A DNA stretch of 36,129 bases from a virus (IMGVR_UViG_3300016722_000007:1-36129); one strand, 5' to 3'. Shown: positions 3,280 through 35,752, counted from the stretch's first letter. The notes: generated by a model from the sequence alone, not told the origin. Program-made: numbers and translations.

Positions 3280-4208
3280 TGGAAAAGACCGAGATCGATT
3301 GGCTTAAGCTTTTCGTCAATTTCCTCGACGGCGACTCTTTCAAGCATATGCGAAGGGCCAAGGTCGAAGGAGTTATGGACCCCAGAGACAAACTCGAAGC
3401 CGTCTGGTGGGAGTTGCTGGCGCTCGCCGGAAAATGCAACCACGGCGGAGCCATTTGGAACGATGATGGCGTTTCCTACAAAACCGACGAGGATATCGCC
3501 ATCGCCGTGGACAGAGCGGAAAGCGAGATTCAGTTCTGCATGGCCTTTTATGTCAAACAGGGAATGATCACCCGAACCGACAAAGGCCCGATTATCAATA
3601 ACTTCGACAAATACCAGTCCATCGACAAGCTTACTCAAATTCGGGAGGCGGCCCGCCTTCGTCAGGAAAAACACCGCGTGGCTTTGAAACGTCTGTCAAT
3701 GTCACGTGACGGTGACGTGACGTCACAGAATCCTTCTCAAGAGACGAAAGACGTAGCCGAAGACGTTAAGACGTCAGAAGTTTTACCAAGTTTTACCAGG
3801 TTAGACCCGAATCGGGGATTCGGGCCATACGTCGCTTACCTATACGAACACTCCTACTTGAACGATTTCGACTTAAGCGACGAGGAAGTGGCCAACCAAT
3901 ATAAGGAATTCCTTGGCTCGATGGACGCCAAATACGGGAACAGAAATCTTCATTTGACTCTGAAATACTTCGTGGGGGAATACTGCAAACCCATCTATCG
4001 CGGAGGAAGGATCGTCGGATGGTCAATGAGCGAGGATCCCCAATCGAAAATTGGCTTGCTCAAAAAGTCGGTTTCCGAAAATTGCGAGAGATTCAGCGGC
4101 AAATCCGAGGACGAGCTTCCCTTTGGACAAATCGGCGATGAAACGGACGACAACGAATGGAAAGAGCTTATGGCTTCCTTTTGTTTGAAGCCGGAAGGGG
4201 GCGACTGA
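3279..4208 (+). CDS. Phage replisome organizer / replication initiator
   Basis: N-terminal IDWLKLFVNFLD...WWELLALAGKCN...IINNFDKYQ...REAARLRQEKHR pattern typical of Phage_rep_org_N; internal repeats. Confidence 0.85.
   Translation: MEKTEIDWLKLFVNFLDGDSFKHMRRAKVEGVMDPRDKLEAVWWELLALAGKCNHGGAIWNDDGVSYKTDEDIAIAVDRAESEIQFCMAFYVKQGMITRTDKGPIINNFDKYQSIDKLTQIREAARLRQEKHRVALKRLSMSRDGDVTSQNPSQETKDVAEDVKTSEVLPSFTRLDPNRGFGPYVAYLYEHSYLNDFDLSDEEVANQYKEFLGSMDAKYGNRNLHLTLKYFVGEYCKPIYRGGRIVGWSMSEDPQSKIGLLKKSVSENCERFSGKSEDELPFGQIGDETDDNEWKELMASFCLKPEGGD
3700..3776. repeat. Iteron/palindrome cluster, probable phage replication origin
   Basis: TGTCACGTGACGGTGACGTGACGTCACA (nested GTCAC/GTGAC) followed by three AAGACGT repeats within the initiator gene. 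Confidence 0.65.
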
Positions 4209-26135: not shown

Positions 26136-27190
26136 TGGGCACGGGTTTCATTTGTCTTTATGATCATTCCTTCAAAGCACTAGGCACTTGGACTCAGCAC
26201 GTTGCCAAGGAATGGTCTTTGACAAGAAAAGCATTCGAAGCCGACGATTTTACCGCGACATGCTCCGATTGGGGCAATTCAAAGAACGCCTGTTTCGTTG
26301 GCTTGCACACCCCTTCTGGAACCTTGGAATACATTGCCTTTTGCGGGATTCCGGTAACGAAGGGAAAACTAACCACGGTCACCGGTTGCGACTGTCGCCA
26401 TGTCTTCAACCAAGACATCCATGTCTGTCTAAATAAGCAAACGACGAACGGATCCTATTCAATCCTGGATTGCCCTTCGTTGTTCTCTTATTTGCTCAAA
26501 GGCGTTTTCGCGGAAAACGGAATATCGCTTGGCATCGATTACGAGATTGATGTAAGCGATACCGGTTTTTGCGCATGGAATGAGGCCGCGATTGCTAGGG
26601 AGTCGTCAATTTCTAACATTTGGGATTTGATCCAAAAATTCAACGCCGTCTATAACACCGTCATGACCGTTGAATGGTCGGTTGATTCGGGAACCAATGT
26701 TTATTCGCTCAAATTCGTCGTTAGGCGGATCTATCAAAGCAGGGCACTGAAACTCTCTGATTACGACATCGTCATGAAGCTCAACCAGAACACCATCAAC
26801 CGCGTCGTCGCCTCCGATGGGAGCACATCGGTTACCTACTATCTTTACAACGACAATTCGGTAGGGATGACTTTCGATTCGTCAAAATGCCTCTTCCCTC
26901 CGAGAATTTTCACGATAGTCGATGAAGACATTGACAAAGCCAAGGCTAAGGCAATCGAAAAATTAAACGACAACAGATTCCAGGACAGGGTAACCGTTGA
27001 CAGAACGACGAAACTGGGGTCGACCCTGTCCGATTTAAACTTCACATACTTCGGCGATCTGGCTGGTTACAACGCTGCAGATTTGTCCACCTCGAAAAGG
27101 CTTCCAGTCTCTGCCGTTAAAACTGATTCAAAAGGGATGAACAAAATCGAGTTCGGAAGATTGAGCGACTATTGGTTTTTGGAGGAATGA
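26132..27190 (+). CDS. Tal / baseplate hub protein
   Basis: Follows Dit; LYD..F..LG N-terminus and terminal EFG; GAGG RBS before ATG 26132. Confidence 0.65.
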   Translation: MMGTGFICLYDHSFKALGTWTQHVAKEWSLTRKAFEADDFTATCSDWGNSKNACFVGLHTPSGTLEYIAFCGIPVTKGKLTTVTGCDCRHVFNQDIHVCLNKQTTNGSYSILDCPSLFSYLLKGVFAENGISLGIDYEIDVSDTGFCAWNEAAIARESSISNIWDLIQKFNAVYNTVMTVEWSVDSGTNVYSLKFVVRRIYQSRALKLSDYDIVMKLNQNTINRVVASDGSTSVTYYLYNDNSVGMTFDSSKCLFPPRIFTIVDEDIDKAKAKAIEKLNDNRFQDRVTVDRTTKLGSTLSDLNFTYFGDLAGYNAADLSTSKRLPVSAVKTDSKGMNKIEFGRLSDYWFLEE

Positions 27191-28164
27191 CAATGGCACT
27201 TACCTTGTTGCGGAAAAATAACTCAGACCCAATCACGGCTTTCCATGACTCTTTGTTATGGCACTCACTGCTTGGAACGGGAGTTTTGGATTCGGCCTAT
27301 GACGGATTCAAAGGCAATGTCTCATCCTCGTCTTTCAGCATTTCATCGGGCCTTATCGTCTTCGGTGGAAGGCTGATAGAAATCACAAAAGGAACGTTTT
27401 TGACTCTCGACACCAGCGAACTGACTGGTCTTGCTTGTTTCGTATACCTCTCGGTTACGATCTCTTCAGACGACTCGGCCAGCTCGGTTTCAATCTACGC
27501 TTCAGCAGAGAGCAATTTGGCCACACAAAAAACACCAGTCGACGGGGTTGGCACATTCGTTTTGCTTCTTTTCTCTTTCAGCAAGCAAACCGGAACGGTG
27601 TCCGAGCTATTCAAGCGCATTATGCCGGGAATCGCCCTCAACGCCGTTAACCTCTTGGGCGGTGGATACATAAACGGCATCAAATTCTCCGACATCTTTC
27701 TTTCCGATATGTCTGGCGTCAAGTACGCCTTGGAATCTGACGTGGCCGCCGAGGCGGATGGTTTCGTTGGTGGATCAAAGAACATCGTGAAGAGCAATCT
27801 CTATATGCCAAATAGAGGAGTTTACCTTCTTCAGGACGCCATCTTGGTCAATATCGAAGGGGTCACCCTGAACGCAGGAGAAACGCAGAACTTCGCCTTC
27901 ATCAATTCTGAAAGCCTTCAGCAAGGAGAGGATATCGTGGAAGTCGACTATACACTTAACGGCGGAAACACCATTCGAAAAAGCGGCCAATTCGCAGATG
28001 ACCTCTCATCGAGCCATACAGCGACTTCGTTCATGATAAACGGAGGGGTTCATATCTTGATTTTGGCCAGCCAAAAGAAACTTCAACTCATTAACAAAAA
28101 GAGCAATCCCCTAACCATAACAAGCCTGCGGGTTGACGCGCTGTGCTTCGGAGGATCGGTATGA
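27187..28164 (+). CDS. Baseplate / tail-appendage protein 1
   Basis: N-terminal ITA.HD...G.GV...I.SG....GGR.IEI baseplate-attachment-like motif; start is ATG 27187 or 27193. Confidence 0.6.
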   Translation: MTMALTLLRKNNSDPITAFHDSLLWHSLLGTGVLDSAYDGFKGNVSSSSFSISSGLIVFGGRLIEITKGTFLTLDTSELTGLACFVYLSVTISSDDSASSVSIYASAESNLATQKTPVDGVGTFVLLLFSFSKQTGTVSELFKRIMPGIALNAVNLLGGGYINGIKFSDIFLSDMSGVKYALESDVAAEADGFVGGSKNIVKSNLYMPNRGVYLLQDAILVNIEGVTLNAGETQNFAFINSESLQQGEDIVEVDYTLNGGNTIRKSGQFADDLSSSHTATSFMINGGVHILILASQKKLQLINKKSNPLTITSLRVDALCFGGSV

Positions 28165-29519
28165 CCGTTCGGATAGTTAACAAAAACGGAAATGCACGAC
28201 AATCGTTCATGGATTCGGCGATTTTCCATTTCGGGAAAGGGCCTGATAAGAACGAAAACCCTTACGGAATCATAAGATCGGAAGTCTCGGACCCCTTTTC
28301 CATGAGGTTTGACCAAGCGGCTCTTACGGCCTATCTTGAGCCAGGACTTTTCGAGATTTATGGCAGGGATATCGAACTAGATTCCGAGCAATTGGTCTAT
28401 GATTTCCATTCGACATCCGAATCATCGGTTATGTTTTGCACAGTTTACATCTCGATCAACTTGGAGGACTCGACTAGGCAAAACGCGACAATAGGCATCG
28501 ACATCAGCGGCGGGAATTTTAAGAACTTCGCCGCCTCGGGAATTCAGGATAACATCCTTCATTTGACTCACGGTGTGTTCCAGGCGCCGGTTTGCCGCTT
28601 TAAGTACACCCCTTCGTTAAGCTCGCCATTCTCCGACTTCGAAAAGGTTGCTTCCGTTTTGGACGACCAATCCCGTTTCGCCGTAAGAAACCTAAGAAAA
28701 GGGGACACCATAAGTGGGGTGCCGGTCGAGAGCATTTTCAATGGAAACAAGGCTATCAAAGCATCGAATTCGGAATCCTTGGCCATCTACAAAGCCAACG
28801 GAAGCAGCGGTAAGGACCTCAAAGGTTATAGCCACGCCGCTGTTGCCAAGGCGTTTGGGACTGGACTAAACGCCAATCAAATCGATTCGTCTATAACTGG
28901 TCTCTACACGGTTAAGCGCGTGAAGTTGTGTGACATCGATGGAAACTTCATGGGTTCGGATTGCAACATTGTCAAAGACGTGAAAGTCGACTTTGAGCAC
29001 CTGGATAGAGTCATCATGTTTTTCTCGCATGCGAAGCTGAAGGGTCATGGCGAATACTATGAGCGCGGAATAGCCACCTTTGGAATCATGAATTGGGCAA
29101 AAGGCGACGCCGAAGTTCAATTCGACTTGACCGATTATGAAATCAGCGGTTCAAATCTAGTTTCAACTGGTCTTTCGGTTTTCTTAAGGGGTTCTTTCGA
29201 AGCGACTGGGAATCCAATTATGAAAAGCCTTGGTTTCAAATCCAATGAGAATACTCTCAATGACCAGTTCCTTTCAATTTGGATTAGATTGGGCCCTTAT
29301 CAATTTTCTCAACACGATTTCGGCAAAATAAGCATCACGAAACTGGGGGACCACTATGCTAGGTTTTCCGCGAAAGGGAACCCTAATTCTCCGGTTTATA
29401 ACCAATGGTATCAATTCGCCGACTGGCGATGGTGGCAATACATGGCTCTAACCAACATCGAAGGGTCCGGAGAGATATATGCGGATTTCATTTATAAAGG
29501 GGAGGTTGACCTATCATGA
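28161..29519 (+). CDS. Baseplate / tail-appendage protein 2
   Basis: Similar N-terminus (PG.F.IYGR.IEL); GGAGG RBS; ATGA overlap. Confidence 0.6.
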   Translation: MTVRIVNKNGNARQSFMDSAIFHFGKGPDKNENPYGIIRSEVSDPFSMRFDQAALTAYLEPGLFEIYGRDIELDSEQLVYDFHSTSESSVMFCTVYISINLEDSTRQNATIGIDISGGNFKNFAASGIQDNILHLTHGVFQAPVCRFKYTPSLSSPFSDFEKVASVLDDQSRFAVRNLRKGDTISGVPVESIFNGNKAIKASNSESLAIYKANGSSGKDLKGYSHAAVAKAFGTGLNANQIDSSITGLYTVKRVKLCDIDGNFMGSDCNIVKDVKVDFEHLDRVIMFFSHAKLKGHGEYYERGIATFGIMNWAKGDAEVQFDLTDYEISGSNLVSTGLSVFLRGSFEATGNPIMKSLGFKSNENTLNDQFLSIWIRLGPYQFSQHDFGKISITKLGDHYARFSAKGNPNSPVYNQWYQFADWRWWQYMALTNIEGSGEIYADFIYKGEVDLS

Positions 29520-30607
29520 GATTAGTGGAAACGAAGAATTTGGCTCCAGGAATGACGCCCGATATCGGAGCGGCGAGAAATCGGATCGGCTCACGTGGGC
29601 AGAACGGTGCGATTTTCGGATTCTCTTTGAGCAACGTCAATGGCGTTGTCAAGGCGTCAAAAGGACTTTTATCCGTGCAAGGATTCACTTTTGAGGTCTT
29701 GGAAACGGAGGACGTCTTCGACATAGCCTCCTTCTCGGTGTCCTCCACGGAGACCTATATCATCTACTTGGCGGTAAGCTTCAACGCTTCGACGCGGGAC
29801 GTTTCTTCTACTGTCGAATGCTACAAGGCATCGGTTACGAAAAGCAACGTGTCAATCGAACAGGGGCTGACTGGCACCTATTTCTACCCATTGGCCAAAT
29901 TCGTCAAAAACGGACCGACGATCGTTTCTTTTGAGTCATCCGTTAAGGATATCAGCAACTCCGGAACAGGAACCAGCGTGGTCGTCCCTCAACCGACCCT
30001 TGCCATCGTCAATACTCATGCATCTCATAGCGGGGTGAAAAGCGTTGTGAATGGTTGGCTTATGATCGGGAATGTCCTGGAGTATTCGTCGCTAGCCTCC
30101 TCGTATGATGTTCAGTTCGTCTTTTTCCGAAAACTTCAGAAGGCACATACAAGGTCGGCTGAACTCCTTTGGACAACGAGAACGATGTGGTGCGAGAGCT
30201 CTAGATCCGGTAATTCCGGAATCGGGAACTTCTCAAAACTCACGGTTGGATACAACAATTTGACGTCAGTGATAATCAGCGGATCGACATTCCAGACGAA
30301 AAAATCGGTTTGCCCAATCTCCGAAATCATCTCCGCGGCTTTCTATTTGAAGGCCACCGGGGGAACGAAATCCCCTGTCGTTGAAGGATGCAATCCGGCA
30401 TTGATTAGAGCAACCCGAAGCCACAATGCCGGAACCAGTCGAGGAATAAGGCACAACTTCCTGGAATTCGCCTATAAAGTTCGCGTCTTCTCAAACGGAG
30501 TTCTGATCGGCGAGAGCGCGTTGTCGAATTCCGTGATCGTCATACCTAACGTAAAAGCGAAACAAGGAGGTGTGTTAGGAAGATACTTCACAATCAAATG
30601 CATTTGA
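29516..30607 (+). CDS. Baseplate / tail-appendage protein 3 with basic C-terminal domain
   Basis: Similar N-terminus (KG.L.VQG..FEV...YPLA.F), Ser/Gly/Thr linker, then a ~205-aa domain with 22 K/R versus 8 D/E by hand count. Confidence 0.6.
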   Translation: MRLVETKNLAPGMTPDIGAARNRIGSRGQNGAIFGFSLSNVNGVVKASKGLLSVQGFTFEVLETEDVFDIASFSVSSTETYIIYLAVSFNASTRDVSSTVECYKASVTKSNVSIEQGLTGTYFYPLAKFVKNGPTIVSFESSVKDISNSGTGTSVVVPQPTLAIVNTHASHSGVKSVVNGWLMIGNVLEYSSLASSYDVQFVFFRKLQKAHTRSAELLWTTRTMWCESSRSGNSGIGNFSKLTVGYNNLTSVIISGSTFQTKKSVCPISEIISAAFYLKATGGTKSPVVEGCNPALIRATRSHNAGTSRGIRHNFLEFAYKVRVFSNGVLIGESALSNSVIVIPNVKAKQGGVLGRYFTIKCI

Positions 30608-30615
30608 TTGATTCA

Positions 30616-30745
30616 TAGGGCTCTCTTGCGCCCCAATTCGTGGCCTGCAATCGGCGTCTGATGGAAATCTCGCCTGTGCTTGACGCGACTATTGAGCCTG
30701 CTGTCGCGGCGCTATTGACATGAAGTGGGGCACAAGAGAGTCCTA
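30616..30745 (+). ncRNA. Candidate structured ncRNA (~130 nt, multibranched)
   Basis: TAGGGCTCTCTTGCGCCCCA (30616-30635) pairs with TGGGGCACAAGAGAGTCCTA (30726-30745); extended by TTCGTG/CATGAA; inner hairpins GGCG..GAT-GGAA-ATC..CGCC and CGCGAC/GTCGCG. Confidence 0.6.
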
Positions 30746-30820
30746 AAAATAAAAAAAGCAAATTTCAATCGTTTGATTATTACCAACACCAATATTCCAT
30801 TACCTAAAAGGAGGAAAACA

Positions 30821-32953
30821 ATGGAAAAAACCTTAGAATTACTACTTCATGAATCCGGGGAGCTTCTGCCTATCAACGATGGGGCCAGCCTTGGCCTTGA
30901 ACTTGAAAGCGGAGCGACAACCATTCAGGTCGATCTTCCAAAATCTGCTTATGGAAATAAGCACTTTCTTGAGTTCGTCAAACCCGACGGAACCACCCTT
31001 TCGACTTCGGCTCTTAGCGAAAACACATCCGACTCAGGAGTTCACTACGTTTCTCTTGCCGTCTCCTCTCTCATCAACGACCAAACGGGGAGAGTGAGGA
31101 TGCAATATGTCGGAAGAAGCGGAACCGATCTATCTCTTGTCCAGAAATCAAACGTTGTCCCGCTTGACGTCGATTCTAGTATCAACGCAAGCGCCTCCAT
31201 CGAGTTGATCGACCCGGACTTTATTTCCTGGGCAATCAATCAGATATCGCTTCTTACCAAGAAAGTCGGCGGCCTCGACGACGACCCGACCGACGATCCG
31301 GCCACCAAGGAAGAGCTCAAGGCGGAATCGGACAGGGCGAAGGCGGCTGAGTCCGCCAACGCCTCGGCGATCGGGGTGAATTCCAATGCTATCTCAGCCG
31401 AAGCCATTCGCGCCACCGGGGTCGAGGCCGGGCACGCCAGCCGCATCAAGACATTAGAAGATCTCATCGACTCGAACATGTTCTTCTACGGGGCCAAGTT
31501 CTACGACGGCGACACGTCCGGCGAGCGCCTCGGGGCCGCCATCGGCCTTCAGGCCGGCGTCAACGGCGAGCCGAACGACTTCGACCACATGCCCCTTTAC
31601 AAGGACATCACAACCTACACCGATCCCTCCGGAAACAAGATCGTCAAGGTCGGGAAAAGCTTCTACCACAAGAGGTTCCACGGCGGGACACCGGGGCAGT
31701 CCGGCTACTGGTTCGCCGAATGCATCTCGCCGTTCCAGATCGACCCCTCGTGGGGCCTACATGACGCCTTCGTTGACAAAAACGGGGCGGACCGGGGCTT
31801 CTTCACGATCGGTCGCTACATGGCCTCGGCCAACGCCGGCGGGACGAAGCTCGTCACCGTGTCCGGGGCGCTTCCGAAGACGTCGCTGACGCCGACCCAG
31901 GCGAGGGCCTTGGCCGCCGCCGGAGGGGCGAAACTCTGCGAGAACCGAAAATTCGACGCGCTCGGGCTCCTCTTCAGGATCGAGTTCGCGACGAACGACG
32001 GCCAAAGCGTCTTCTCCGGTATCAGCTACTCGCTTTCCATCTACCCGACCGACCAGCCTGCGCGCCAGCTCGGCGATACCGGCAACACCGTCGTCTGCTC
32101 CGCCGCGGACAACTTCTCGGGGGACGAGGCCGAATGGGCCAAGGCCTTCGGGGTCGGGACTCCGATCAACGTCTGGGACGACAACAGCGGCGGGTTCGTC
32201 GGGGAGGTCGGCAGGCACGTGACGGCGATATCCTTCGTCGACGGTGTGAACCCCGACGGCGGAGCCCCGGAAAGAAGGGTGCAGGTCACCATCAGCGGAT
32301 CGCCCATCAACCTTCTCGACACGACCGAGTACTACGCGTGCGTGCAGAACTTCAGCCCCATCACGGGGCAGACCGACTCCTTCGCCGGATCCTCTTCCGA
32401 GGACGCGGCCAGATACAAGGGCATCAGGACTTTCTCCTATCGGGGGGTGGAGAACCTCTGGGGCCTCTTCTGGCAGTTCGCCGACGGCGCCTGCCACGTC
32501 ATCCACAACGCGCCGACCTCCGCCGGATGCTCCACGAAGAGGTTCGAGTGCTTCGATCCGGCCCATTACGACGAGATCGCCAACGCGTTCGTCGGCAACA
32601 CGGAGAGGGCGTCCCTCCTGATGCCTCACTGGGAATGCGTCTACACCTATCAGGGAAACAACGCCGGCCCGAACGGGTACATCCGCGACTTCGCCGACAC
32701 GCCCGTCTCCGGCCACTACGGCATCGATGTGTCGCTGTCCTCCGCGGGAAGCAACGTGAGCTTCGTCCCGGACTACGCAACGATACCCAGCGCGAACACC
32801 AACCCGATTGAGCAGGAGCGCCTTTGCGTCTCCTATCGCGGCGGCGGCGCCAGCGACGGGGCGTACGGCGGTCCTTGCGACCTGTACGGCCTCAGCGACC
32901 CGAGCGACGCTGATCCGTACTGCGGGTTCCGGCTTTCTTACGATCCTTCGTGA
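30821..32953 (+). CDS. DGR target: tail fibre / receptor-binding protein, BppU-like N-terminus and C-type-lectin-like (Mtd-like) C-terminus
   Basis: AGGAGG RBS before ATG 30821; LEFVKPDG anchor region, coiled coil, IGRYMAS, YRGVENLWG..WQF.DG, terminal RGG...GFRL containing the VR. Confidence 0.88.
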   Translation: MEKTLELLLHESGELLPINDGASLGLELESGATTIQVDLPKSAYGNKHFLEFVKPDGTTLSTSALSENTSDSGVHYVSLAVSSLINDQTGRVRMQYVGRSGTDLSLVQKSNVVPLDVDSSINASASIELIDPDFISWAINQISLLTKKVGGLDDDPTDDPATKEELKAESDRAKAAESANASAIGVNSNAISAEAIRATGVEAGHASRIKTLEDLIDSNMFFYGAKFYDGDTSGERLGAAIGLQAGVNGEPNDFDHMPLYKDITTYTDPSGNKIVKVGKSFYHKRFHGGTPGQSGYWFAECISPFQIDPSWGLHDAFVDKNGADRGFFTIGRYMASANAGGTKLVTVSGALPKTSLTPTQARALAAAGGAKLCENRKFDALGLLFRIEFATNDGQSVFSGISYSLSIYPTDQPARQLGDTGNTVVCSAADNFSGDEAEWAKAFGVGTPINVWDDNSGGFVGEVGRHVTAISFVDGVNPDGGAPERRVQVTISGSPINLLDTTEYYACVQNFSPITGQTDSFAGSSSEDAARYKGIRTFSYRGVENLWGLFWQFADGACHVIHNAPTSAGCSTKRFECFDPAHYDEIANAFVGNTERASLLMPHWECVYTYQGNNAGPNGYIRDFADTPVSGHYGIDVSLSSAGSNVSFVPDYATIPSANTNPIEQERLCVSYRGGGASDGAYGGPCDLYGLSDPSDADPYCGFRLSYDPS
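32834..32939 (+). repeat. DGR variable repeat (VR)
   Basis: Ungapped 106-bp alignment to 33032-33137 with 16 mismatches, each opposite a TR adenine. Confidence 0.96.
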
Positions 32954-32961
32954 GAGGTTCC

Positions 32962-32985
32962 GTCAAGGGGACGCCTCCCCTTGAC
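32962..32985. other. DGR target-recognition hairpin/cruciform
   Basis: Perfect 10-bp stem GTCAAGGGGA/TCCCCTTGAC with 4-nt loop CGCC just downstream of the VR; no U-tract. Confidence 0.8.
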
Positions 32986-32997
32986 ATAGGAGAACAG

Positions 32998-33234
32998 GGC
33001 GCGTCGCGTGCATAAGGTTCCCTCCTCTCCGAATCGCGGCGGCAACGCCAACAACGGGGCGAACGACGGTCCTTGCAACCTGAACGGCAACAACGACCCG
33101 AGCAACGCTGATCCGAACTACGGGTTCCGGCTATCTTGATTCGATCACGGCACGCGCCGTCCTCGCCGAGCGCGAAAATAGGCTATTTAAGGGGCCGGCT
33201 GGTAGGCCGAAAGGCTCGAAAACCGGCTTAAGCC
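32998..33234 (+). ncRNA. Predicted DGR template RNA (5' leader + TR + structured spacer)
   Basis: CGCGTGC (33005-33011) can pair with GCACGCG (33150-33156); spacer has GCCGG/CCGGC and GCC-GAAA-GGC hairpins. Ends approximate. Confidence 0.6.
33032..33137 (+). repeat. DGR template repeat (TR)
   Basis: Intergenic copy of the VR with 11 AAY triplets in the VR frame; lies between target and RT. Confidence 0.96.
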
Positions 33235-33250
33235 AAAGAAAGGACGAACG

Positions 33251-34324
33251 ATGAAAAGAAAAGGAAACCTCATGAGGGGGATGCTCGCCGACGCGGCAGT
33301 CCTCTCGGCCATCGAGAGCGCCGCCAAAGGCAAAAGGAACAAACCAACCATTGCCAGACGCCTCTCCCGCCTCGAAGACACGGCCTCCCAAATCAAGTCG
33401 CTCGTCTCCTCCGGGAGTTTCTCCCCTTCGCCGATGCAGACCATGAGGATCGTCGAATGCGGGAAGGAAAGGATCATCAGCAAACCACCTTTCTTCCCTG
33501 ACCAAATAATCCATTGGCTGGTCGTCGACCAGCTGAAGCCCCTCCTCATGAGGGGGATGGAGAAAGGCGTCTGCGGGTCCGTCCCCGGTCGCGGGGCCGA
33601 AGAGGCCAAGAGGCTTGTCAGGGGATGGATCGTCCACGACAGGAAAGGCACCAAATGGTGCCTCAAGATCGACATCCATCACTACTACCAGTCCATCGAC
33701 CGCTCCGTCCTGTTCGGGAAAGTCGGGAGGCTGGTCAAGGACCCGTGGATGCTCAGCCTCGTCGGTAAGCTGATCGGCGGGCCGGGCATCGGGATCCCGA
33801 TCGGGACCTACTGGAGCCAATGGATGGCCAACCTCTACCTCCAGTCCTTCGACCATTTCGTGCACGAGGGCCTGAAGATTGCCCATGAGGTCCGCTACGT
33901 CGACGACGTCGTGGTCTTCTCCCCGAACCGCAGGCAGCTCATGAAAGCCCAAAAGGAGATGGCCGCCTTCCTCGCGAAGGAGGGCCTCGAGATGAAGCCG
34001 AGCTGGTCGGCGTTCCGGACATCCGAAAGGGACGTCGACTTCGTGGGCATACGCTTCCATGGCAACGGCAAGACGTCGATCCGCAAGCGGATCTGGCGAG
34101 AGGCCAGGCGGACCGTCCTTCGGATCGGGCACCACGGCCTCGGGGCCTCCAGGGCCCGCAGGCTGATGAGCTACAACGGGTGGTTCCAAGGGACCAACAA
34201 CTTTGTGATCAAGACCAAATACCTCGCGAAGATCGACATGAGGGCCGCCAGGCGGAAGATCGCCGAGGCGCCCGCAAGAAAGCAAATGCCCAGCGAAAGG
34301 AGGGCAAAAGCATGCAGAAACTGA
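33251..34324 (+). CDS. DGR reverse transcriptase
   Basis: GKERII, DQIIH, LKIDI..YY.SI, GIPIGTYWSQWMANLYL (DGR-type GxxxSQ), RYVDD, DFVG, SYNGW; 357 aa; no maturase/endonuclease extension. Confidence 0.96.
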   Translation: MKRKGNLMRGMLADAAVLSAIESAAKGKRNKPTIARRLSRLEDTASQIKSLVSSGSFSPSPMQTMRIVECGKERIISKPPFFPDQIIHWLVVDQLKPLLMRGMEKGVCGSVPGRGAEEAKRLVRGWIVHDRKGTKWCLKIDIHHYYQSIDRSVLFGKVGRLVKDPWMLSLVGKLIGGPGIGIPIGTYWSQWMANLYLQSFDHFVHEGLKIAHEVRYVDDVVVFSPNRRQLMKAQKEMAAFLAKEGLEMKPSWSAFRTSERDVDFVGIRFHGNGKTSIRKRIWREARRTVLRIGHHGLGASRARRLMSYNGWFQGTNNFVIKTKYLAKIDMRAARRKIAEAPARKQMPSERRAKACRN

Positions 34325-34575
34325 AAGCCGAGTCGTCCGTTTCCCCGAAGCCAAAAGTGGTTGGGAAGACCTTCGTCGACATCAACGCCAACGTCAGGCA
34401 GGTCACGAAGACTCTGGGCAAGGGCCCGACCGCGACCGCGACCGCGTCTACCGTCTACGCCTACGACGTCGAGCGCTATACCATCCAGGAATACATCGCG
34501 AAGATCTCCGACGAGTCGGCGGCCTCGGCCACCGCCGTTGCGGAGCTGTCCGACCTGATCCTGACAAAGGAGTGA
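34312..34575 (+). CDS. Small tail-fibre-associated protein
   Basis: AGGAGG RBS; YAYDVERYTIQEYI...AVAELSDL pattern of small proteins that follow tail-fibre genes. Confidence 0.6.
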   Translation: MQKLKAESSVSPKPKVVGKTFVDINANVRQVTKTLGKGPTATATASTVYAYDVERYTIQEYIAKISDESAASATAVAELSDLILTKE

Positions 34576-34582
34576 AAAACTT

Positions 34583-34750
34583 ATGCAGCAAAGCTACGAA
34601 GGCATAGCCAGAAACTACGCTAACCTCGTCGAGAAGGGCTTAAGGACCCTTGATTCGATCAAGAACACCCTGGTGCGCCAGCGCGTCCAGGAGATGGTCG
34701 AGGAAGACGCGAAGAAGGGGGCGGATCCCCAGCCTATGACTACGAGATGA
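34583..34750 (+). CDS. CD1375/XkdX-like small protein (55 aa, not in the ORF track)
   Basis: ARNYANLVEKGLRTLDSI....RQRVQEMV; AAGGAG RBS. Confidence 0.62.
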   Translation: MQQSYEGIARNYANLVEKGLRTLDSIKNTLVRQRVQEMVEEDAKKGADPQPMTTR

Positions 34751-34833
34751 GACTTTAGACGAAGATGAGCCGTTGAAATTCGTTTCCTATAAAAAGCGGG
34801 GGTGGAGCCATCACTTTATAGGAGGAATCCAAA

Positions 34834-35388
34834 ATGGATCCTAATTCATTCTTCCAAGCCGTAGTATCCTTCATTCAGAAGTACGGTCTGCTTGCCATCG
34901 TCTGTGGCCTTGTCGTCGCTCTAATCACGGAGGCGATCAAAATTCCGATCTATCGGGCCGGAGTCAAGTACCAAGAAAAGACCGGGATCGACAAGAGCGG
35001 AATCACTTGGCTAATCACTCTCGTAAGCCTTGCGATAAGCTTCTTCATCGCTTTTCTCGTCTGCTTCTATTTGGCCAAGTGGAATTACGCAGATCTCGAT
35101 TGGGCGAATGTTGGCTTGAAAAGCGCTGCCATTTACACAACTGCAACAGCCGAATACGAGGTGTTCAAAAAGATTATCAAGGCAGCCCAATCTCTCAGCG
35201 CTGCAAACAAAGCCAAGAAAATCGCATCCGAATCATCTTCGCTCATCCAATCCGATCCCAGCCTCACTGTTCCGGCTGTCGTTCAGGAAAAAGCTTCAAA
35301 AGGGGTTGAGGTAGCCGTCACGCCAAAAGCGGCAAAGAAAGAGGAAGGGCCTAAGCCTGGCGGCCAAGGTACCAAATCCTTGCTCTAA
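34834..35388 (+). CDS. Holin-like membrane protein
   Basis: Two to three hydrophobic segments (LITEAIK pattern) and a charged C-terminal tail; lysis-module position; AGGAGG RBS. Confidence 0.65.
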   Translation: MDPNSFFQAVVSFIQKYGLLAIVCGLVVALITEAIKIPIYRAGVKYQEKTGIDKSGITWLITLVSLAISFFIAFLVCFYLAKWNYADLDWANVGLKSAAIYTTATAEYEVFKKIIKAAQSLSAANKAKKIASESSSLIQSDPSLTVPAVVQEKASKGVEVAVTPKAAKKEEGPKPGGQGTKSLL

Positions 35389-35677: not shown

Positions 35678-35697
35678 CTGGAGCAAGTGACGGGAAT
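35678..35697. repeat. Right att core (overlaps the tRNA-Gly 3' end)
   Basis: Identical to 447-466. Confidence 0.95.
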
Positions 35698-35752
35698 CGG
35701 ACCCGCGTATTTACCTTGGCAAGGTAATGTTCTACCATTGAACTACACCTGC
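35679..35752 (-). tRNA. tRNA-Gly (GCC)
   Basis: Reverse complement GCAGGTG...TTACC-TTGCCAA-GGTAA...GGTCCGATTCCC...CACTTGC-T-CCA folds as a 74-nt cloverleaf with encoded CCA. Confidence 0.96.

Follow-up and report, generated by a model that had tools for sequence, protein, structure and literature searches.

We found that in a 36-kb prophage record the gene of a tail appendage protein is followed, directly past its stop codon, by a structured non-coding element, and that this pairing of gene and RNA, which is real, conserved and unannotated, recurs in relatives of the protein. The element is known here from sequence alone. We tentatively favour a reading in which the element is an RNA: it would be excised from the late transcript, the basic tip of the tail protein would bind it, and the baseplate would carry it; such a ribonucleoprotein tail is plausible, with transcription, cleavage, binding and virion incorporation all being steps that we infer. 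Particles of tailed phages are generally regarded as consisting of protein and genome. If true, a tail-borne RNA would represent a novel type of component for host recognition or delivery as well as a naturally occurring scaffold for RNA display, and under the rival readings too this would be an undescribed RNA element in phages of uncultured, partly wall-less Bacilli. Within the window, by which we mean the whole stretch of 36,129 nucleotides analysed, the tail gene and the element are laid out as follows.

29516–30607, plus strand: tail appendage gene, 363 aa, with a TGA stop that ends at 30607
Residues ~1–155 of the tail protein: N-terminal shoulder of the p2/1358-RBP type, from the predicted model
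29987–30604, plus strand: basic FN3-like C-domain, residues 158–363, from composition and the predicted model
30616–30745, plus strand: structured non-coding element, 130 nt, z −5.58, at the same position in 11 of 11 loci, no Rfam match
30616–30642 and 30719–30745, plus strand: arms of the element's closing stem, from fold prediction
30653–30674, plus strand: predicted inner hairpin 1 with a GGAA (GNRA) tetraloop, from a suboptimal fold
30684–30708, plus strand: predicted inner hairpin 2 with a 13-nt loop, from a suboptimal fold

Upon examining the element in the window, we find that it starts at 30616, 8 nt past the stop codon, as the first-pass annotation of this DNA had placed it. Its closing stem consists of 13 bp, a C·A mismatch and 6 bp with one G-U pair, again as described, and the TTCGTG/CATGAA extension of the stem is present as well, preceded by an A·G mismatch. 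The segment 30612–30750 folds at −63.2 kcal/mol on the plus strand (z −5.58, 0 of 200 shuffles as good) and at −56.2 kcal/mol on the minus strand (z −4.66); the plus-strand preference proposed earlier is thus modest in the window, and among the loci compared the plus strand folds lower in 8 of 11 and the minus strand in 3 of 11. The interior had been drawn as a CAAT/ATTG helix with two inner hairpins, and these hairpins do occur among the suboptimal folds but not in the minimum-energy fold. The three-way interior scores −60.5 against a minimum of −63.2, i.e. 2.7 kcal/mol higher, and the interior fold of this copy of the element is ambiguous. The intergenic stretch of 213 nt is, as had been noted, the only large gap: between the small terminase gene and the gene at 30821 there are 18 junctions, and no other exceeds 28 nt. 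An A-tract follows the element and no terminator-like site is seen on either strand, in agreement with the earlier view that it is not an intrinsic terminator, and a scan of the window showed no promoter-like site on it. Nor could an RNA family be assigned, as before: no Rfam 15 family reached its gathering score on the element, where the best match was a miRNA model (19.9 bits against 98 for gathering), and the elements of nine other loci gave no Rfam match at E ≤ 1. Contigs covering the element, from two runs whose label as RNA was a guess, were rejected as expression evidence, as they may be DNA and come without ends or levels. A guide-RNA role was also set aside, the longest exact matches between element and locus (10–13 nt in 10 loci) being read as chance level, without a shuffle control.

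The first-pass annotation had made its case depend on a covarying structure downstream of homologous genes, and such a structure was found. Loci were collected by homologue searches of viral, metagenome and genome collections; L124, which is the window's own record, was left out, as were repeats of the same element (L002, L125, L126 and L131, together with L132, L134, L251 and L239, which equal L127, L130, L219 and L253, respectively). This left 11 distinct loci with a full-length protein, whose C-domains share 29–80% identity, and in all 11 a long-stemmed element of 124–268 nt lies directly past the stop codon. The gap after the tail gene measures 183–299 nt in every case, with fold z-scores of −2.2 to −5.4 (40 shuffles), and each element has 21–33 long-range pairs at p > 0.9. 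The stem starts 3–10 nt past the stop in 9 of 11 loci; for L129 and L133 the computed distance was 0 owing to a spurious pair between the two ends, and their folds place the stem 7–9 nt past the stop. By blastn the elements form six groups, namely the window with L001, then L128, L129, L133, L130 and L219, and L127, L220, L248 and L253 singly.

The alignable subgroup of five (L128, L129, L133, L130 and L219) displays changes on both sides in 15 of 44 pairs, distributed over the closing stem (7 of 21) and the inner helices (4 of 7, 3 of 6, 0 of 2 and 1 of 8). Here 92.9% of cells are paired, none of 500 shuffles was as high in changed pairs and slid controls gave 1–4 pairs, controls that are inflated because these five related sequences also supplied the structure; this covariation is supportive rather than a significance test. 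Between the window and L001, five changed pairs are kept and two broken, and the paired positions of inner hairpins 1 and 2 are unchanged. GNRA tetraloops can be read on the plus strand in the window, L001, L127, L128, L129, L133, L130 and L253. One covariance model (R1) missed the window, L001, L132, L242, L248 and L253, and another (R2) found, among 12 sources, only the two loci from which it was built, so that elements of different clades have no homology detectable by covariance models. What the clades have in common is the location of the element, its long closing helix and its branched interior, not its sequence; no shared sequence motif across the elements marks a protein site. The interior diverges between clades in both sequence and size, as receptor-binding tips do. 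In the distant clade of L253 the element (3702–3974) is 268 nt long, twice the size of the window's, with about five inner hairpins. Direct repeats were also seen inside elements, one of 11 nt that forms both hairpin loops in L220 (2674–2712; seen as L242) and one of 12 nt in L127 (5164–5242). No relative was found among GenBank phages, by a peptide-pattern search of genome contigs, in viral contigs queried with P0034 or P0027, or in a sample of 261 genomes of the order to which G005 belongs.

Next, we consider the tail protein, which matched no Pfam and no PHROG family. In its AlphaFold2 model (mean pLDDT 77.5), residues 12–156 align with the receptor-binding protein of phage 1358 (4l92_A; Z 10.2, rmsd 3.2, 134 aligned, VIA-align), and the N-terminal domain also resembles the shoulder of the phage p2 protein (2wzp; Z 8.8, rmsd 4.1, 130 aligned). 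The predicted model thereby has the shoulder domain by which p2/1358-type RBPs dock on the distal tail, and the baseplate-attachment-like N-terminus suspected at first pass is borne out at the level of predicted fold. The count of 22 K/R against 8 D/E in the C-domain was likewise reproduced over residues 158–363. The core of this domain, about 95 residues, is FN3/Ig-like with insertions, and its best PDB match is weak (Z 5.4, rmsd 3.5, 98 aligned); a search of BFVD with the fold gave no match at E ≤ 0.001, the ESM Atlas matches all stayed under 0.9, and no RNA-binding structural relative was among the fold matches. A long beta-hairpin at residues 198–227 is predicted in both models, and a second basic loop spans residues ~297–315. 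As in the lactococcal phages 1358 and p2, which share the shoulder fold, the tail gene comes after Dit and a Tal-position gene, whereas here, where those proteins have a sugar-binding head, the tip is basic and by weak matches FN3-like, without a clear structural counterpart, and a conserved RNA-like element follows the gene.

A profile search of 1.84 billion representatives returned 29 proteins, comprising 26 full-length members, two fragments and P0027, an otherwise unrelated fibre-like protein of 650 aa that ends in the basic domain. Across 37 aligned relatives the C-domain has a median net charge of +16 (range −1 to +23), with +6 or less in 5 of the 37, and the median of the N-domain in tail-protein relatives is −2. 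The four tail proteins neighbouring the product of 29516–30607 are all net acidic. At 13 columns of the C-domain alignment K or R occurs in 60% or more of the 37 relatives, and these columns cluster on the hairpin (YRxxQxxxYR...K.Y.KKT.W) and on the second loop (IRATRSK...KHNF). R205, R213, R298 and R301 are among the conserved residues. This conserved pattern of basic residues suggests that the C-domain may bind nucleic acid. The family that this domain forms is undescribed, and it occurs in phages whose hosts are uncultured and partly wall-less Bacilli.

Directly downstream of the element lies a DGR, which the first-pass annotation had missed.

30795–30826, plus strand: weak hairpin in which TCCAT pairs with the next gene's start codon, the Shine-Dalgarno lying within its loop or close to it
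30821–32953, plus strand: next gene, 710 aa, acidic (net −37), phrog_5302 tail protein, no Pfam hit
N-terminus of that gene: BppU_N-like, as a lead only (ESM Atlas 0.94 to a cluster with 13% PF10651)
32835–32939, plus strand: DGR variable repeat (VR), 105 nt, 86% to the TR
33033–33137, plus strand: DGR template repeat (TR), forming the repeat pair with the VR
33153–33242, plus strand: RT-18-like RNA between TR and reverse transcriptase (38.5 bits against 41.3 for gathering, E 0.00019)
33251–34324, plus strand: DGR reverse transcriptase (RVT_1, E 4e-15)

All 15 differences between VR and TR fall at TR adenines, and the VR ends the gene at 30821–32953, which is the DGR target. The DGR at 30821–34324 is complete, VR and TR being separated by no accessory gene, and in L253 the RT-18-like RNA scores above gathering. 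Folding predicts the TCCAT hairpin at the start codon for 10 of 11 loci, with energies of −4.2 to −9.3 kcal/mol (L220 reaches −1.7, without TCCAT), and this hairpin is likely to be a translation damper of the adhesin gene. The BppU_N-like domain occurs in the same 2 of 401 genomes as the full-length tail protein, and all eight viral loci found with this domain also carry the tail gene upstream. The tail gene, the element and the BppU-like domain hence travel as one module, in which the element may serve either neighbour. A complex prediction for the basic domain with the acidic BppU-like domain scored 0.00 without folded controls, a value that weighs neither for nor against a pairing of the two proteins. 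GC content climbs from about 0.47 to 0.64 near 31270, and other contigs of run X1, which are deeper, have the DGR cassette in common only from about 31256 onward, together pointing to cassette exchange between phages. In L251 (5485–8437) the element of L219 is kept and the DGR is built differently: the gene after the element is not the target, the VR lies in a later DUF6273 gene, and a 164-aa gene stands between VR and TR, followed by the reverse transcriptase.

Upon sampling 401 genomes of the host family, we observed the full protein in two and a shoulder-only orthologue in one, G253; a sample of the host order added G449 with the full protein. The G253 prophage has orthologous upstream tail genes in the same tail operon, and its 167-aa shoulder-only gene is followed by the next gene after 13–14 nt, with later gaps that hold small genes with ribosome sites. 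Across 72 windows of this tail region there are at most 14 long-range pairs, and the element is absent. The 109-aa gene of G253 has no similarity to the downstream BppU-like domain, and this genome is also without the BppU-like domain family that elsewhere comes after the element. As a single case that lacks both, G253 cannot separate the tail protein from the BppU-like gene as the element's partner. The strict co-occurrence of C-domain and element that the first pass had asked for holds in all 11 full-length loci, and the shoulder-only orthologue goes without the element; the element is equally tied to the N-terminal domain of the next gene. Fifteen weak shoulder relatives from another phage group (L222–L235 and L237) have near-neutral C-halves, and their tail gene overlaps the called next gene, or nearly, two loci being too short; at p > 0.5, L225 shows 33 long-range pairs and L230 shows 22, within coding sequence. 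These loci are too distant to be usable as controls.

On the reading of a virion RNA bound by the C-domain, transcription would read through the element, where neither a promoter nor a terminator is seen, and RNase III would cleave within the closing stem of 21–33 bp and free the RNA. The stem offers the roughly two helix turns of an RNase III substrate, and all 5 of the host-group genomes examined encode an RNase III (PF00636 over cut-off). The predicted beta-hairpin and the IRATRSK...KHNF loop would then bind the RNA, and the shoulder domain would dock the complex on the distal tail. Most speculatively, the clade-divergent interior may be the outward-facing part of the appendage, contacting the host or serving as scaffold. 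The first-pass annotation had put forward this same virion RNA, and none of the sequence-level conditions that it had named as refuting arose: gene and element stay paired, the alignable subgroup covaries, no Rfam family matches and the element is single-copy. A role in cis stands beside it. The virion reading is favoured because the element begins immediately past the stop codon, because its interior exceeds in size and constraint what cleavage would require, and because the basic loops are kept whether or not penicillin-binding transpeptidases are detected (G449 as against G225 and G259). The tail gene–element pair is found in G225 and G259, without a detected transpeptidase, and in G449, with three, all incomplete genomes; since the pair and the basic loops span genomes with and without a detected transpeptidase, a phage-supplied ligand fits better than one host surface polymer. 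That a mature particle would bear an appendage of protein and fast-evolving RNA, recognising the host or being handed over, beside the DGR-diversified adhesin, is a possibility we hold with somewhat more reserve.

The element could instead act only in cis, as a stability site or a processing site for RNase III, setting how much the adhesin and DGR genes produce, with the basic tip binding an anionic host surface such as a phospholipid or lipoglycan. This is the main rival, somewhat less likely than the virion RNA. It accords with the long closing stem as the sole feature common to all 11 loci, with the RNase III genes in all five genomes, with the start-codon hairpin downstream in 10 of 11 loci and the perfect co-occurrence of the element with the downstream BppU_N-like domain, and the RNase III sites of phage T7 are a precedent. 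Four of five genomes have no detected transpeptidase, so that the membrane may be exposed (PMC10868615). A processing site, however, does not call for inner helices that covary too (4 of 7, 3 of 6 and 1 of 8 pairs) or for an interior that reaches about 200 nt in L253, beyond what cleavage needs; the G253 phage makes its DGR adhesin without the element, and the basic loops are retained in a walled host. Autogenous control by RNA-binding proteins is established, and unassembled tail protein might bind the element in the cell and tune translation or processing of the next gene, the RNA staying out of the virion. The adjacency of gene and element, the conserved basic loops and the start-codon hairpin lying downstream would suit such feedback, which we nonetheless judge improbable: in 9 of 11 loci 26–75 nt separate the closed stem from the start codon downstream of it, no alternative pairing of the element with the ribosome site is seen, and a tip domain of 200 residues is a large investment for feedback.

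That the element is a part of the DGR, or a retron-like template for the nearby reverse transcriptase, is very improbable, even though a reverse transcriptase lies downstream at every locus long enough to show one and the long terminal inverted repeats a1/a2 of retrons can be likened to the element's ends. The DGR has its own TR and RT-18-like RNA, 2.3 kb away, the element is 2.1 kb upstream of the VR, and the reverse transcriptase is tied to the VR/TR pair by the adenine-specific differences rather than to an msr-msd. The DGR does not account for the element, as G253 has VR, TR and reverse transcriptase without it and L251 keeps the same element with a differently built DGR, and the cassette shared in run X1 begins only downstream of it. 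An inserted palindrome such as a MITE, for which the terminal inverted repeats of about 27 nt could speak, is scarcely credible: the element is single-copy, with no dispersed copies within the 36-kb record, and has a constant junction with the gene yet unrelated end sequences between clades. A 17-nt stem end used as a pattern matched 0 viral contigs, and a less strict pattern for the inner hairpin hit about 1200 stretches, too many to be specific. The known-MITE outcome that would have counted against the first-pass proposal is thus largely refuted.

Among known systems, the best-known phage RNA in a machine is the pRNA of phi29, which is phage-encoded, 120–170 nt long, has a long 5'/3' helix and a three-way junction and works in a protein machine; it serves the packaging motor and leaves before particle maturation. 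The element differs in matching no Rfam family and in lying within a Dit-type tail module, 12.6 kb from the terminase genes and not linked to a packaging ATPase. The RNase III processing hairpins of phage T7 are simple, each a long intergenic helix in a polycistronic transcript, whereas the stem here closes a branched, covarying interior. GOLLD and ROOL are much larger than the element. They are described (PMC5737381) as orphan structured RNAs, often in prophages and near tRNAs; theirs is no fixed tail-gene partner, and the element has no Rfam match to them or others. The same source (Weinberg et al. 2017) reports RT motifs, including RT-18 (RF03021), as structured RNAs near DGR reverse transcriptases. 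The RNA at 33153–33242 is alike, whereas the element is separate from it, upstream of the DGR target gene and absent from a relative with an intact DGR. The literature, covered mostly through titles and abstracts, showed no phage RNA that is linked to a tail and that a protein of the virion binds. Six supplement files of PMC10690425 contained none of four sequence motifs and neither of two sample identifiers, though the element may be an unnamed entry among that paper's candidates (files 1, 2 and 4).

Finally, the setting of the prophage was characterised. A protein family scan annotated terminase, portal, protease, capsid and Dit genes, both terminase subunits being encoded, and the start of a host gltX is present. 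The closest relatives of this gltX, at up to 89% identity, are uncultured Bacilli of gut, rumen and reactors, including Candidatus Enteromonas and CAG:288, and the host order is presumably RFN20.

35682–35752, minus strand: tRNA, the only Rfam match at gathering score in the window

This tRNA, beside the host gltX, is the probable integration site. No endolysin family was matched among 31 window proteins scanned, which would fit a wall-less host. Past the reverse transcriptase, the region 34312–35388 reads as two small genes and a holin-like membrane gene. Upstream, at 27172–29519, the two genes preceding the tail gene share similar N-terminal sequence starts, and the first of them scores weakly against the tail-protein family profile in G225 and G253, suggesting that the tail gene and these two may be three paralogous appendages.
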